The position numbers were made by a program, and so were the translations under genes. Shown piece after piece: positions 2,710 through 28,365 of a stretch of DNA of 64,000 bases. The notes beneath the pieces are model-generated. The model did no database searches and had not been told where the DNA came from. It saw only the letters and a list, made by a program, of their open reading frames with translations. This DNA comes from Escherichia coli (GTDB taxonomy: Bacteria > Pseudomonadota > Gammaproteobacteria > Enterobacterales > Enterobacteriaceae), in assembly GCF_965641715.1 (NCBI RefSeq), contig NZ_OZ282453.1, one strand, 5' to 3'. The stretch's first letter is position 1. Each line of letters starts with the position of its first letter.

Positions 2710-3726
2710 ATGGCCGTTAACTTACTGAAAAAGAACTCACTCGCGCTGGTCGCTTCTCTGCTGCTGGCGGGCCATGTACAGGCAACGGAACTGCTGAACA
2801 GTTCTTATGACGTCTCCCGCGAGCTGTTTGCCGCCCTGAACCCGCCGTTTGAGCAACAATGGGCCAAAGATAACGGCGGCGACAAACTGACGATAAAACA
2901 ATCTCATGCCGGGTCATCAAAACAGGCGCTGGCAATTTTGCAGGGCTTAAAAGCCGACGTTGTCACTTATAACCAGGTGACCGACGTACAAATTCTGCAT
3001 GATAAAGGCAAGCTTATCCCGGCGGACTGGCAGTCGCGCCTGCCGAATAATAGCTCGCCGTTCTACTCCACCATGGGCTTCCTGGTGCGTAAGGGCAACC
3101 CGAAGAATATCCACGACTGGAACGACCTGGTGCGCTCCGACGTGAAACTGATTTTCCCGAACCCGAAAACGTCGGGTAACGCGCGTTATACCTATCTGGC
3201 GGCATGGGGCGCAGCGGATAAAGCTGACGGTGGCGACAAAGCCAAAACCGAACAGTTTATGACCCAGTTCCTGAAAAACGTTGAAGTGTTCGATACTGGC
3301 GGTCGTGGCGCGACCACCACTTTTGCCGAGCGCGGGCTGGGCGATGTGCTGATTAGCTTTGAATCGGAAGTGAACAACATCCGTAAACAGTATGAAGCGC
3401 AGGGCTTTGAAGTGGTGATTCCGAAAACCAACATTCTGGCGGAATTCCCGGTGGCGTGGGTTGATAAAAACGTGCAGGCCAACGGTACGGAAAAAGCAGC
3501 AAAAGCCTACCTGAACTGGCTCTACAGCCCGCAGGCGCAGACCATCATCACCGACTATTACTACCGCGTAAATAACCCGGAAGTCATGGACAAACTGAAA
3601 GATAAATTCCCGCAGACCGAACTGTTCCGCGTGGAAGACAAATTTGGCTCCTGGCCGGAAGTGATGAAAACCCACTTCACCAGCGGCGGCGAGTTAGACA
3701 AGCTGTTAGCGGCGGGGCGTAACTGA
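2710..3726 (+). CDS. cysP: Thiosulfate/sulfate ABC transporter periplasmic binding protein
   Basis: 338-aa ORF with signal peptide ([25 protein letters not shown]); first gene of the cysPUWAM arrangement. Confidence 0.93.
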
Positions 3727-4559
3727 TGTTTGCAGTTTCATCAAGACGCGTGCTGCCGGGCTTTACCTTAAGCCTCGGCACCAGTCTGCTGTTTGTTTGC
3801 CTGATTTTGCTGCTGCCACTCTCCGCGCTGGTGATGCAGCTGGCCCAGATGAGCTGGGCGCAGTACTGGGAGGTGATCACCAACCCGCAGGTGGTCGCAG
3901 CCTACAAAGTGACGCTGCTGTCGGCGTTTGTGGCATCGATTTTTAACGGCGTTTTCGGTCTGCTGATGGCGTGGATCTTAACTCGTTATCGCTTCCCTGG
4001 CCGCACGCTGCTTGATGCGCTGATGGATTTACCCTTTGCGCTGCCAACGGCAGTCGCCGGTTTAACGCTGGCCTCGCTCTTTTCTGTAAACGGTTTTTAC
4101 GGTGAATGGCTGGCGAAGTTTGATATCAAAGTCACCTATACCTGGCTGGGGATTGCGGTGGCGATGGCCTTTACCAGCATTCCGTTTGTGGTACGTACCG
4201 TGCAGCCGGTGCTGGAAGAGTTAGGCCCGGAATATGAAGAAGCGGCGGAAACGCTTGGTGCAACGCGCTGGCAGAGTTTCTGTAAAGTGGTGCTGCCGGA
4301 GCTTTCTCCGGCGCTGGTGGCGGGCGTGGCGCTGTCGTTTACCCGTAGTCTTGGTGAGTTTGGCGCGGTGATATTTATCGCCGGGAACATCGCCTGGAAG
4401 ACGGAAGTGACGTCGCTGATGATTTTTGTGCGCTTGCAGGAGTTTGATTACCCGGCGGCGAGCGCGATTGCTTCGGTGATCCTCGCGGCATCTCTGCTGC
4501 TGCTGTTCTCAATTAACACTCTGCAAAGTCGCTTTGGTCGGCGTGTGGTAGGTCATTAA
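3726..4559 (+). CDS. cysU: Sulfate/thiosulfate ABC transporter permease
   Basis: 277-aa multi-TM ORF; start overlaps the cysP stop by 1 nt. Confidence 0.93.
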   Translation: MFAVSSRRVLPGFTLSLGTSLLFVCLILLLPLSALVMQLAQMSWAQYWEVITNPQVVAAYKVTLLSAFVASIFNGVFGLLMAWILTRYRFPGRTLLDALMDLPFALPTAVAGLTLASLFSVNGFYGEWLAKFDIKVTYTWLGIAVAMAFTSIPFVVRTVQPVLEELGPEYEEAAETLGATRWQSFCKVVLPELSPALVAGVALSFTRSLGEFGAVIFIAGNIAWKTEVTSLMIFVRLQEFDYPAASAIASVILAASLLLLFSINTLQSRFGRRVVGH

Positions 4560-23136: not shown

Positions 23137-23307
23137 TCTCTGCTTTTTGCCGCTTTTGTAATACAGTCTACGTCCGGGTTAGCGCCGCCTGGTGAAAGCA
23201 TCATTGGATGAAAAATCGGCAACAGGCTGGCCCCTGTTTGCTTCGCGATGCGAATAAACTTATTATTTGTGTGCCTGAAAACCCCGATCAGTGAGAGTAG
23301 TGTACTC

Positions 23308-25497
23308 ATGTTTGTGGAGCATAACCTGATAAAAAATATCAAGATATTCACACTAGCGTTTACGCTCACCGTGGTACTTATTCAGCTATCCCGTTTTATT
23401 TCGCCACTTGCCATTATCCATTCCAGTTATATCTTTCTGGCGTGGATGCCACTGTGCGTAATGCTGTCAATCTTGTTTATCTTTGGCTGGCGCGGTGTCG
23501 TTCCCGTTTTATGCGGGATGTTTTGCACCAATCTGTGGAACTTTCATCTCTCTTTTTTACAGACTGCGGTCATGCTCGGCAGCCAGACATTTGTCGTGTT
23601 GTGTGCCTGCGCAATATTACGCTGGCAGCTGGGGACGCGTTGGCGTTATGGATTGACCAGCCGATATGTCTGGCAACGTCTGTTCTGGCTTGGTTTGGTG
23701 ACGCCGATCGGCATCAAATGCAGCATGTATCTTGTGGGGAGCTTCTTTGATTTCCCGCTAAAGATATCCACCTTTTTCGGCGATGCGGATGCCATTTTCA
23801 CGGTCGTGGATTTACTAAGCCTTTTCACCGCTGTTCTGATTTACAACATGCTTTTCTACTATCTCACTCGCATGATTGTAAGTCCCCACTTTGCGCAGAT
23901 ATTGTGGCGCAGGGATATCGCTCCGTCATTGGGCAAAGAGAAACGCGCATTTACCTTAAGCTGGCTGGCAGCGTTAAGCGTGCTGCTACTTCTGCTGTGC
24001 ACACCTTATGAAAACGACTTTATTGCCGGTTACCTGGTACCCGTTTTCTTCATCATCTTTACCCTCGGGGTCGGTAAGCTTCGCTATCCGTTTTTAAATC
24101 TCACCTGGGCTGTTTCAACGCTTTGCCTGCTGAATTACAACCAGAACTTTTTGCAAGGGGTGGAAACCGAATATTCGCTGGCATTTATTCTCGCGGTGCT
24201 GATTTCCTTTAGCGTTTGCCTGCTCTATATGGTGCGCATTTATCATCGCAGTGAATGGCTTAATCGCCGCTGGCATTTGCAGGCGCTGACCGATCCGTTA
24301 ACGCTCCTGCCCAACTTTCGTGCGTTGGAACAAGCGCCGGAGCAAGAGGCGGGCAAGAGTTTTTGCTGCCTGCGCATTGATAATCTTGAGTTTATGAGTC
24401 GTCATTACGGGTTGATGATGCGCGTTCACTGTATCCGATCAATTTACCGTACGCTGCTGCCATTGATGCAGGAAAACGAAAAGTTGTATCAATTGCCGGG
24501 TAGTGAACTGCTGTTAGTGCTGAGCGGGCCGGAAACGGAAGGGCGACTCCAGCATATGGTTAACATCCTGAATAGTCGGCAAATTCACTGGAACAATACC
24601 GGGCTGGATATGGGCTATGGTGCTGCCTGGGGGCGTTTTGATGGAAATCAGGAAACCTTGCAACCCTTGTTGGGGCAGTTAAGCTGGCTGGCGGAGCAAT
24701 CCTGCGCACATCATCATGTGCTGGCGCTGGATAGCAGAGAGGAGATGGTTTCCGGGCAGACCACTAAACAGGTGCTATTGCTGAATACCATTCGCACGGC
24801 GTTAGATCAGGGTGATTTGCTGCTCTACGCCCAGCCAATTCGCAACAAAGAGGGTGAAGGTTATGATGAGATCCTCGCGCGACTGAAATATGACGGCGGC
24901 ATTATGACCCCGGATAAGTTTCTGCCCCTTATTGCTCAGTTTAACCTTAGCGCGCGTTTTGATTTGCAAGTGCTGGAATCCTTGTTGAAGTGGCTGGCAA
25001 CACACCCTTGCGACAAAAAAGGCCCGCGCTTTTCAGTTAATTTAATGCCGCTCACGCTGCTGCAAAAGAATATTGCCGGGCGGATTATTCGTCTATTTAA
25101 GCGTTATCACATCTCCCCGCAGGCGGTCATTCTTGAGATCACCGAGGAGCAGGCGTTTTCTAACGCAGAAAGCAGCATGTACAACATCGAGCAGCTGCAT
25201 AAGTTTGGTTTCCGGATTGCGATTGATGACTTTGGCACCGGATATGCCAACTACGAACGGTTAAAGCGTTTGCAGGCTGATATCATCAAAATTGATGGCG
25301 TCTTTGTGAAAGATATCGTCACGAATACGCTGGATGCGATGATTGTGAGATCAATTACCGATCTGGCGAAAGCGAAGTCATTGAGTGTGGTTGCGGAGTT
25401 TGTTGAGACGCAACAGCAGCAGGCGCTATTGCATAAGCTCGGAGTGCAATATCTGCAAGGGTATTTGATTGGACGCCCGCAGCCATTAGTTGATTAA
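23308..25497 (+). CDS. pdeA: c-di-GMP phosphodiesterase-type protein: N-terminal multi-TM sensor domain, degenerate GGDEF, EAL domain (729 aa)
   Basis: ATG at 23308 gives MFVEHNLIKNIKIFTLAFT...; about 9 predicted TM segments; GGDEF position reads GSELL; EAL-domain motifs QPI...EIL and DDFGTGYANY. Track ORF 23248.. is an extension. Confidence 0.85.
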   Translation: MFVEHNLIKNIKIFTLAFTLTVVLIQLSRFISPLAIIHSSYIFLAWMPLCVMLSILFIFGWRGVVPVLCGMFCTNLWNFHLSFLQTAVMLGSQTFVVLCACAILRWQLGTRWRYGLTSRYVWQRLFWLGLVTPIGIKCSMYLVGSFFDFPLKISTFFGDADAIFTVVDLLSLFTAVLIYNMLFYYLTRMIVSPHFAQILWRRDIAPSLGKEKRAFTLSWLAALSVLLLLLCTPYENDFIAGYLVPVFFIIFTLGVGKLRYPFLNLTWAVSTLCLLNYNQNFLQGVETEYSLAFILAVLISFSVCLLYMVRIYHRSEWLNRRWHLQALTDPLTLLPNFRALEQAPEQEAGKSFCCLRIDNLEFMSRHYGLMMRVHCIRSIYRTLLPLMQENEKLYQLPGSELLLVLSGPETEGRLQHMVNILNSRQIHWNNTGLDMGYGAAWGRFDGNQETLQPLLGQLSWLAEQSCAHHHVLALDSREEMVSGQTTKQVLLLNTIRTALDQGDLLLYAQPIRNKEGEGYDEILARLKYDGGIMTPDKFLPLIAQFNLSARFDLQVLESLLKWLATHPCDKKGPRFSVNLMPLTLLQKNIAGRIIRLFKRYHISPQAVILEITEEQAFSNAESSMYNIEQLHKFGFRIAIDDFGTGYANYERLKRLQADIIKIDGVFVKDIVTNTLDAMIVRSITDLAKAKSLSVVAEFVETQQQQALLHKLGVQYLQGYLIGRPQPLVD

Positions 25498-25525
25498 CAG
25501 GCGTAAAAAAGCCGGGGAATTATCC

Positions 25526-26864
25526 CATAAGCGCTAACTTAAGGGTTGTGGTATTACGCCTGATATGATTTAACGTGCCGATGAATTACTCTCACGATAA
25601 CTGGTCAGCAATTCTGGCCCATATTGGTAAGCCCGAAGAACTGGATACTTCGGCACGTAATGCCGGGGCTCTAACCCGCCGCCGCGAAATTCGTGATGCT
25701 GCAACTCTGCTACGTCTGGGGCTGGCTTACGGCCCCGGGGGGATGTCATTACGTGAAGTCACTGCATGGGCTCAGCTCCATGACGTTGCAACATTATCTG
25801 ACGTGGCTCTCCTGAAGCGGCTGCGGAATGCCGCCGACTGGTTTGGCATACTTGCCGCACAAACACTTGCTGTACGCGCCGCAGTTACGGGTTGTACAAG
25901 CGGAAAGAGATTGCGTCTTGTCGATGGAACAGCAATCAGTGCGCCCGGGGGCGGCAGCGCTGAATGGCGACTACATATGGGATATGATCCTCATACCTGT
26001 CAGTTCACTGATTTTGAGCTAACCGACAGCAGAGACGCTGAACGGCTGGACCGATTTGCGCAAACGGCAGACGAGATACGCATTGCTGACCGGGGATTCG
26101 GTTCGCGTCCCGAATGTATCCGCTCACTTGCTTTTGGAGAAGCTGATTATATCGTCCGGGTTCACTGGCGAGGATTGCGCTGGTTAACTGCAGAAGGAAT
26201 GCGCTTTGACATGATGGGTTTTCTGCGCGGGCTGGATTGCGGTAAGAACGGTGAAACCACTGTAATGATAGGCAATTCAGGTAATAAAAAAGCCGGAGCT
26301 CCCTTTCCGGCACGTCTCATTGCCGTATCACTTCCTCCCGAAAAAGCATTAATCAGTAAAACCCGACTGCTCAGCGAGAATCGTCGAAAAGGACGAGTAG
26401 TTCAGGCGGAAACGCTGGAAGCAGCGGGCCATGTGCTATTGCTAACATCATTACCGGAAGATGAATATTCAGCAGAGCAAGTGGCTGATTGTTACCGTCT
26501 GCGATGGCAAATTGAACTGGCTTTTAAGCGGCTCAAAAGTTTGCTGCACCTGGATGCTTTGCGTGCAAAGGAACCTGAACTCGCGAAAGCGTGGATATTT
26601 GCTAATCTACTCGCCGCATTTTTAATTGACGACATAATCCAGCCATCGCTGGATTTCCCCCCCAGAAGTGCCGGATCCGAAAAGAAGAACTAACTCGTTG
26701 TGGAGAATAACAAAAATGGTCATCTGGAGCTTACAGGTGGCCATTCGTGGGACAGTATCCCTGACAGCCTACAAAACGCAATTGAAGAACGCGAGGCATC
26801 GTCTTAACGAGGCACCGAGGCGTCGCATTCTTCAGATGGTTCAACCCTTAAGTTAGCGCTTATG
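25526..26864 (+). mobile_element. IS186 insertion sequence (IS4 family), about 1.34 kb
   Basis: Terminal inverted repeats cataagcgctaacttaagggttg (left) and caacccttaagttagcgcttatg (right); flanked by a duplicated ggaattatcc-type target sequence; carries one transposase ORF. Confidence 0.93.
25575..26693 (+). CDS. insL: IS186 transposase (372 aa as read)
   Basis: ORF MNYSHDNWSAILAHIGKPEELDTSARNAGALTRR... inside the IS186 inverted repeats; IS4-family DDE transposase. Confidence 0.93.
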   Translation: MPMNYSHDNWSAILAHIGKPEELDTSARNAGALTRRREIRDAATLLRLGLAYGPGGMSLREVTAWAQLHDVATLSDVALLKRLRNAADWFGILAAQTLAVRAAVTGCTSGKRLRLVDGTAISAPGGGSAEWRLHMGYDPHTCQFTDFELTDSRDAERLDRFAQTADEIRIADRGFGSRPECIRSLAFGEADYIVRVHWRGLRWLTAEGMRFDMMGFLRGLDCGKNGETTVMIGNSGNKKAGAPFPARLIAVSLPPEKALISKTRLLSENRRKGRVVQAETLEAAGHVLLLTSLPEDEYSAEQVADCYRLRWQIELAFKRLKSLLHLDALRAKEPELAKAWIFANLLAAFLIDDIIQPSLDFPPRSAGSEKKN

Positions 26865-26896
26865 GGAATTATCCCCGGCTTTTTTATGTATGGTGC

Positions 26897-28099
26897 TTAC
26901 AGCACCAGTGCTGCGATTGACGCAGACAGCACACTCACCAGGGTAGAGCCGTAAACCAGTTTCAGACCGAAGCGAGAAACCACGTTACCTTGCTCTTCAT
27001 TCAGGCCCTTAACTGCACCTGCGATAATCCCGATTGAAGAGAAGTTAGCGAAGGAAACCAGGAACACAGAGATGATGCCTTCAGCACGCGGAGAGAGCGT
27101 GGAAGCAATTTTCTGCAGATCCATCATCGCAACGAACTCGTTAGAAACCAGTTTGGTCGCCATGATACTGCCCACTTGCAGTGCTTCACTGGAAGGAACA
27201 CCCATCACCCATGCAATCGGATAGAAGATGTAGCCCAGGATGCCCTGGAAGGAGATGCTGTAGCCAAACCAGCCAGTCACGGTAGCAAACAGTGCGTTCA
27301 GCGCGGCGATCAGGGCGATAAAGCCGATCAGCATCGCGGCAACGATAATGGCAACTTTGAAACCTGCCAGAATGTATTCACCCAGCATTTCGAAGAAGCT
27401 CTGACCTTCGTGCAGGTTGGACATCTGAATGTTTTCTTCACTGGCATCAACACGGTAAGGGTTGATCAGCGACAGCACGATAAAGGTGCTGAACATATTC
27501 AGTACCAGTGCTGCAACGACATATTTCGGCTCCAGCATGGTCATGTATGCACCAACGATGGACATCGACACGGTGGACATCGCCGTTGCTGCCATGGTGT
27601 ACATACGGTTACGGGAGATTTTGCCAAGGATATCTTTATAGGCAATAAAGTTTTCAGACTGACCCAGAATCAGGGAGCTGACGGCGTTAAAGGATTCCAG
27701 TTTGCCCATACCGTTGACTTTGGAGAGCAGGAAACCAATTGCGCGGATAATCACCGGCAACACGCGAATGTGCTGGAGAATACCGATCAGTGCAGAGATA
27801 AAGACGATTGGGCACAGTACTTTCAGGAAGAAGAATGCCAGGCCTTGATCATTCATGCTACCAAAGACGAAGTTAGTCCCTTCGTTGGCAAATCCGAGCA
27901 GTTTTTCGAACATTTCGGAGAAGCCTTTCACGAAGCCTAAACCAACGTCGGAGTTCAGGAAGAACCACGCCAGTAACACTTCGATAACAAGCAGTTGAAT
28001 AACATAACGGATACGAATTTTTTTGCGGTCGCTGCTTACCAGCAGTGCGAGAATCGCAACAACGGCAAGTGCCAGTACAAAATGAAGGACGCGGTCCAT
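26897..28099 (-). CDS. nupC: Nucleoside:H+ symporter (CNT family), 400 aa
   Basis: ATG at 28099 gives [27 protein letters not shown]...; track ORF extends 13 codons upstream. Confidence 0.9.
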
Positions 28100-28365
28100 A
28101 TTTGCTCCAAATATGAGGCAGGTTAAATTTCCGTGCACATTCTATGTAACATGGTTAAGGAAAACGAGATCTGACACACACTATAATGACGTCCTGTGAC
28201 AAGCTTCAAAAATAGTGAGCTGTCATACATTTCTGCTATGTTGTGTATGGAAGCTGAAAGTTATGTAAATGTGCTAACATTAAACATAACCATAACATTC
28301 AAGTCATCAATCTTTTCGTAGTCATAATCCTGGTCTATCAGAGAAATCACCACAATCCATTTAAA

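Follow-up and report, generated by a model that had tools for sequence, protein, structure and literature searches.

An IS186 insertion in the terminator shared by pdeA and nupC, at the site of K-12 IS186C and in the opposite orientation

The insertion sequence IS186 chooses its targets with high specificity. Lee et al. (2016) reconstructed 59 new IS186 insertion sites and found the motif GGGG(N6/N7)CCCC, while the N5 spacing, GGGG(N5)CCCC, is seldom used; the K-12 genome holds only 19 GGGG(N6)CCCC sites, and single sites are struck repeatedly and in either orientation, the motif being palindromic (PMC5009759). At one position in the lon promoter, IS186 has been seen in both orientations (Lyons et al. 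2011, PMC3045373). Here we describe a complete IS186 copy between the convergent genes pdeA (yfeA) and nupC in a 64-kb stretch of an Escherichia coli chromosome (contig NZ_OZ282453.1; the window, with position 1 as its first letter). We are highly confident that the insertion arose by transposition of a full-length IS186 into an intrinsic bidirectional terminator serving both genes, that the element lies in the reverse orientation of the K-12 copy IS186C, and that the site has been struck repeatedly.

Like the lon-promoter insertions (PMC3045373, PMC5009759), the insertion between pdeA and nupC occupies a target made of a G-run, a spacer and a C-run, with repeated independent insertions in both orientations. 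In contrast to them, as they break a promoter and lead to Lon deficiency, it disrupts a terminator, leaves the genes on both sides intact and has no known phenotype. The K-12 copies IS186A, IS186B and IS186C all have 10-bp duplications in GGGG-N6-CCCC hairpins (3/3). IS186A and IS186B equal the window element in length and inverted repeats, and their targets are, as here, GC hairpins at the 3' ends of genes; their hairpins are without flanking A-tract and T-tract, whereas the pdeA/nupC hairpin has both. In MG1655 these two hairpins (GCGGGG-N6-CCCCGC) are located just downstream of the toxin genes hokC and hokE, so that each of the three K-12 copies interrupts a hairpin at the 3' end of a gene.

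The closest relative is IS186C, which MG1655 annotates, with insL3 (b2394), between nupC and pdeA/yfeA. The window copy shares with it the element (0 mismatches in 1339), the target hairpin, the insertion point and the 10-bp duplication, and the MG1655 junctions, read in window orientation, are identical base for base. The orientation is reversed, however: insL3 reads in the nupC direction in K-12, insL in the pdeA direction in the window. The flanks are 1-2% diverged. The window insertion is therefore at the same site as IS186C and in the opposite orientation, which a preliminary description of this stretch had not recognised. Its inversion relative to K-12 marks it as an insertion of its own at a hot spot that is hit again and again, either orientation being possible because the target is palindromic. 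The insertion itself is ordinary and already known, the same orientation being annotated in hundreds of genomes; only the population picture of a terminator as a reused, two-orientation landing site is mildly new.

The element and its target

The interval 25498-26896 extends exactly from the pdeA stop codon (25495-25497) to the nupC stop codon (26897-26899, minus strand). It contains the following features:

25526..26864, plus strand: complete IS186, 1,339 bp, 0/1339 mismatches to IS186C of K-12 MG1655
25526..25548, plus strand: left terminal inverted repeat, 23 bp, at the transposase-start end, CATAAGCGCTAACTTAAGGGTTG
26842..26864, minus strand: right terminal inverted repeat, 23 bp, CATAAGCGCTAACTTAAGGGTTG
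25581..26693, plus strand: insL, uninterrupted transposase gene, 370 amino acids, DDE type (IS4 family), from the open reading frame and Pfam DDE_Tnp_1
25516-25525 and 26865-26874: target duplication GGAATTATCC, 10 bp, abutting both inverted repeats
25505..25525: left terminator half, with A-tract (25505-25510), 5' stem GCCGGGG (25511-25517) and loop AATTAT (25518-25523), then CC
26865..26885: right terminator half, with the second GGAATTATCC copy (26865-26874), 3' stem CCCCGGC (26873-26879) and T-tract (26880-26885)

The two inverted repeats agree without a mismatch, where 0.00 such pairs are expected by chance, and the whole 64 kb contains no further copy of CATAAGCGCTAACTTAAGGGTTG, even with up to two mismatches allowed. 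The insL reading frame matches DDE_Tnp_1 with E=1.6e-26 and 93.7 bits (cutoff 23). In every feature that defines IS186 and can be read from the DNA, the element is a member; its sequence is that of the MG1655 copy bearing insL3, and it is identical to K-12 copies of a family shown to be active. It is full-length and apparently functional, in agreement with the preliminary description, which had reported a complete element with 23-bp repeats and an intact transposase in the direction of pdeA. In other genomes the NCBI annotation pipeline (PGAP) labels the insL protein 'IS4-like element IS421 family transposase'. This is a matter of naming only, as the DNA is IS186.

By chance, 0.1 copies of GGAATTATCC would be expected per window. 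Because the element ends in C...G, the boundary can also be drawn with a 12-bp repeat, GGGAATTATCCC (25515-25526 / 26864-26875), around an element of 1,337 bp; the MG1655 annotation draws IS186C 3 bp longer on each side. To find the uninterrupted site, the window without the element and without one repeat copy was searched in 5,426 complete E. coli genomes, the set to which all counts below refer. The empty site is present in 4,461 of them. The closest empty allele, that of strain A30, has the sequence gtaaaaaagccggggaattatccccggcttttttatg and so agrees in full with the predicted reconstruction. All empty alleles that were read carry a single GGAATTATCC-type copy within A6-GCCGGGG-AATTAT-CCCCGGC-T6, some with single-base variants of the hairpin. 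Alignment to A30 and the other empty alleles thus confirms the duplicated flank and the hairpin that had been proposed from the window alone. The rebuilt site, GGGG-AATTAT-CCCC, fits GGGG(N6)CCCC and bears out the suggested preference for a G-run/N/C-run target, which is documented for IS186 (PMC5009759). No other GGGG(N6/7)CCCC site was found in the window.

In empty genomes the spacer between the convergent genes measures 49 bp and consists almost entirely of A-tract, hairpin and T-tract, directly after both stop codons; that of pdeA is 7 nt upstream of the A-tract. The 7-bp GC stem of the rebuilt hairpin is lengthened by A:U pairs, and folding gave -31.1 kcal/mol (z -8.0) for the plus strand and -25.1 kcal/mol (z -6.5) for the minus strand. 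With A6 on one side and T6 on the other, a U-tract follows the stem directly in both directions. By sequence criteria, all of which agree as far as they can be applied, the pre-insertion site is a two-way intrinsic (Rho-independent) terminator. Bidirectional intrinsic terminators between convergent genes are a known general class, and the empty allele shares their GC-rich stem, upstream A-tract and downstream T-tract. The window's copy differs from them in being in two halves, unable to form locally. The four real junction sequences have no better structure than shuffled ones, the right junction keeps a remnant, GGG-AATTAT-CCC plus T6, that does not fold stably, and a terminator scan of the occupied locus detected no terminator-like site at either junction. 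Folding and scan together show the loss of a local hairpin and U-tract for both genes, the stem halves now being 1.35 kb apart; the terminator is split, as had been proposed.

From the mechanism of the IS4 family and the published behaviour of IS186, we infer that the transposase would pick GGGG(N6/N7)CCCC, here the stem and loop of A6-GCCGGGG-AATTAT-CCCCGGC-T6. Cuts staggered by 10 bp within the motif would then be repaired to give the GGAATTATCC duplication. As the IS186 motif is itself a hairpin, GC-stem terminators with a loop of 6-7 nt would be natural hot spots.

Distribution and recurrence

Orientations were counted with junction-specific 143-nt queries. The window-type orientation occurs in 463 complete genomes, including E. 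coli C, ATCC 8739, HS and enterotoxigenic and Shiga-toxin-producing strains, and the K-12-type orientation in 475, mostly laboratory K-12 derivatives together with some wild isolates. The site is occupied in ~17% of complete genomes, a figure inflated by the laboratory derivatives of K-12. E. coli C, ATCC 8739, HS and ~460 other complete genomes have site, orientation and duplication in common with the window, and the full-length copies read differ by 0-1 nt. However, the flank haplotype of the window is not among them, every junction match being below 99% identity, and in some of them the duplication is the AATGAT allele. For the window flanks (23300-28100) and a neighbouring 20-kb stretch, identity to the genomes of the set does not exceed about 99.1-99.5%, and the flanks sit on a long branch: the chromosome is ~0.9% diverged from the nearest complete genomes (99.1% at best, over 20 kb), with 0 differences between its IS186 and the K-12 copy. 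The lineage of the window is thus not represented in the set; it could be a Shigella or an E. coli lineage so far unsampled. Relative to K-12, the flanks have G instead of A at the stem base and an extra G at 26895. This extra G, between the nupC stop codon and the T-tract, is present in the window and in no other genome sampled.

Duplication alleles and flanks were compared across 20 fetched loci. GGAATTATCC on both sides was found in both orientations, and so was GGAATGATCC on both sides, in O169:H41 (window-type) and in 1919D3 and 23CRST029 (K-12-type). The matched variant duplications point to insertion into a different terminator allele, because a change after insertion would alter one copy only and empty AATGAT alleles exist (up to 757 genomes). 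Over 3,400 nt of flank, no single-nucleotide polymorphism (SNP) separates E. coli C (window-type) from K-12 or STEC306 (window-type) from EC16 (empty), and a single SNP separates strain 100416 (window-type) from 14EC033 (empty); the haplotypes of occupied and empty states are interleaved. Two orientations in combination with two duplication alleles indicate at least four independent insertions, and the number is probably higher than four.

The 49-bp terminator is thus polymorphic, with empty, IS186 forward, IS186 reverse and IS4 states. Maps of nupC and pdeA 3' ends made in K-12 are therefore not transferable to strains in other states, and an occupancy of ~17% offers a ready natural series for testing the effects of splitting a shared terminator.

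The IS4 state was observed in strain E686 (NZ_CP049198.1, about 3035-4486 of the fetched locus), where IS4 itself is inserted in the same pdeA/nupC hairpin with flanks ...CCGGGGAATTATCCCC|TAATGCC...GGCATTA|GGGAATTATCCCCGG and a 12-13-bp duplication; the hairpin therefore draws more than one IS4-family transposase. In Nissle, the only phylogroup B2 strain sampled, the hairpin has a 5-nt loop (GCCGGGG-AATTA-CCCCGGC, about 3020-3050 of the locus), which corresponds to GGGG(N5)CCCC, and this spacing may explain why Nissle-like alleles are empty. JNEC-KY203 and B771 carry an IS1 nested in the IS186 at the site (composite of 2,116 bp in JNEC-KY203), which is a secondary insertion into the resident element. 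In EM20-18-50 (about 3050-3060 of the locus) the left duplication reads GGATCTCTCC and the right one GGAATTATCC, with four substitutions, all in the 6-nt core; the pdeA flank beside the altered copy is otherwise normal. The IS186 of strain 14EC047 has a length of 1,336 bp and is annotated as frameshifted.

Transcription and alternative explanations

With the terminator split, pdeA transcripts are predicted to run in sense direction through the left end into insL, and some of this transcription may leave the right end antisense to nupC unless Rho intervenes. From the other side, nupC transcripts would run antisense into IS186 until Rho or an internal hairpin stops them:

26284..26311, minus strand: terminator-like hairpin inside IS186, antisense to insL, GCCGGA-AAGGGAGC-TCCGGC followed by TTTTTTAT, predicted by pattern scan

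Read-through from nupC would encounter no terminator-like site before this one, which it would reach after ~590 nt of IS186. The 6-bp stem of the hairpin forms in the minimum-energy fold, and the hairpin has a stretch of 12-13 nt, TAAAAAAGCCGG, in common with the left half of the target terminator. The hairpin could stop transcription entering the right end of any IS186 copy. For the plus strand, scanning and folding revealed no convincing terminator before the right end of the element. In the K-12 orientation the sense and antisense relations of pdeA and nupC are predicted to be swapped.

Three further candidate structures were rejected: a terminator-like site on the plus strand at 26581-26594 (z -0.11), an inverted repeat over the insL start codon, whose pairing is not formed in the fold of 25560-25670 (z -0.73), and an inverted repeat between flank and element (25495-25506 / 25554-25565), which depends on orientation and is at chance level in the repeat scan.

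Several points weigh against our interpretation. The function of the terminator and the read-through are inferred from sequence alone, and the simple pattern scan caught the intact hairpin only partially and on the minus strand only. The internal hairpin is weak: its stem has 6 bp and its loop 8 nt, and folded in context it gives a z of only -1.5. With regard to the number of events, the duplication of strain 14EC047 is a hybrid, reading AATTAT to the left of the element and AATGAT to its right. This points to recombination of two occupied alleles across the element, or else to decay once the element was in place; allelic exchange of this kind could make the independent insertions seem more numerous than they are. 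Where flanks are identical, as between E. coli C and K-12, inversion in place is formally possible.

On these grounds, a single ancestral insertion might be proposed, from which in-place inversion, precise excision and recombination of flanks produced the present states. The 14EC047 hybrid and the pair of E. coli C and K-12, with 0/3,400 differences in the flanks, identical duplications and elements and opposite orientations, would agree with such a history. We nevertheless consider it unlikely, as the GGAATGATCC/GGAATGATCC pairs in both orientations and the empty AATGAT alleles are what insertion into a different allele would leave, and IS186 has been found experimentally to strike one site repeatedly in both orientations (PMC3045373, PMC5009759). 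Moreover, a single origin would need the element to be flipped between its 23-bp inverted repeats with unaltered flanks, and we know of no mechanism for this. That the window copy descends directly from the K-12 event is suggested by the common site, the common 10-bp duplication and the absence of mismatches to IS186C, but it is extremely improbable: compared with MG1655, the element is turned round between its flanks, which refutes simple inheritance, the flanks are ~1-2% off K-12, and the chromosome is no more than 99.1% identical to any complete E. coli. Independent, repeated transposition into the terminator remains our preferred history.

Concerning the consequences of this insertion, the loss of both terminators, sense read-through from pdeA and antisense read-through from nupC are plausible, and the effects of read-through or outward promoters on nupC and pdeA that had been put forward earlier are conjecture. 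The chances are about even that the insertion is silent for the host genes, with Rho, RNases or cryptic terminators setting the 3' ends of pdeA and nupC. Occupancy of about a sixth of the genomes in both orientations is what a near-neutral landing site would show, and the internal hairpin could cap nupC read-through, whereas the loss of hairpin and U-tract by both genes means that at least the length of the 3' untranslated regions must change. With both coding sequences undamaged and either orientation widely maintained, the most likely net phenotype is a small or neutral one, which we rate no less probable than a regulatory effect. That IS186 supplies an outward or hybrid promoter driving antisense transcription into nupC or pdeA is distinctly improbable. 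A sigma-70 scan of 25200-27200 found no outward promoter-like -35/-10 pair at either end of the element; its 2 matches (2.0 expected) are both outside the element on the pdeA side. In the literature searched we found no description of an outward IS186 promoter, a paper that mentions IS186 together with 'outward' using the word for PCR primers, and the full-text search yielded no paper on IS186 together with nupC, yfeA, pdeA or insL at this locus. The earlier proposal of outward promoter activity is accordingly not supported. It also seems improbable to us that the site, as a recurrent landing site with switchable orientation (IS186 both ways, IS4 in one strain), acts as a selectable regulatory polymorphism. 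If it did, occupancy and orientation would set whose read-through enters the transposase or the opposite gene in sense or antisense, with an influence on nucleoside uptake or c-di-GMP turnover and on the element's own activity.

A weak sigma-70-like pair, TTAACA-18-AATTAT (25494-25523), has its -35 in the pdeA stop region and its -10 in the hairpin loop and points into the element; empty alleles have it too, and such pairs are no more frequent than chance would give.

Flanking genes

The convergent genes on both sides of the element have intact coding sequences, and insL runs in the same direction as pdeA:

23308..25497, plus strand: pdeA (yfeA), c-di-GMP phosphodiesterase with MASE1 and EAL domains and a weak GGDEF match; length and position are those of annotated pdeA
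26897..28099, minus strand: nupC, nucleoside:H+ symporter of the CNT family with Nucleos_tra2_C (2e-62), Nucleos_tra2_N and Gate domains; matches annotated nupC

The Pfam matches of PdeA are strong for MASE1 (3e-67) and EAL (2e-59), while GGDEF, with 4.8e-4 and 20.4 bits, stays under the cutoff of 23.8 bits. The surrounding gene order is that of E. coli, yfeC / alaXW / pdeA / nupC / mntH, and an Rfam scan of the whole window identified six tRNAs and no other RNA family. In strain 1919D3, pdeA is annotated with 2,025 nt instead of 2,190 nt, 165 nt being missing at the 5' end.

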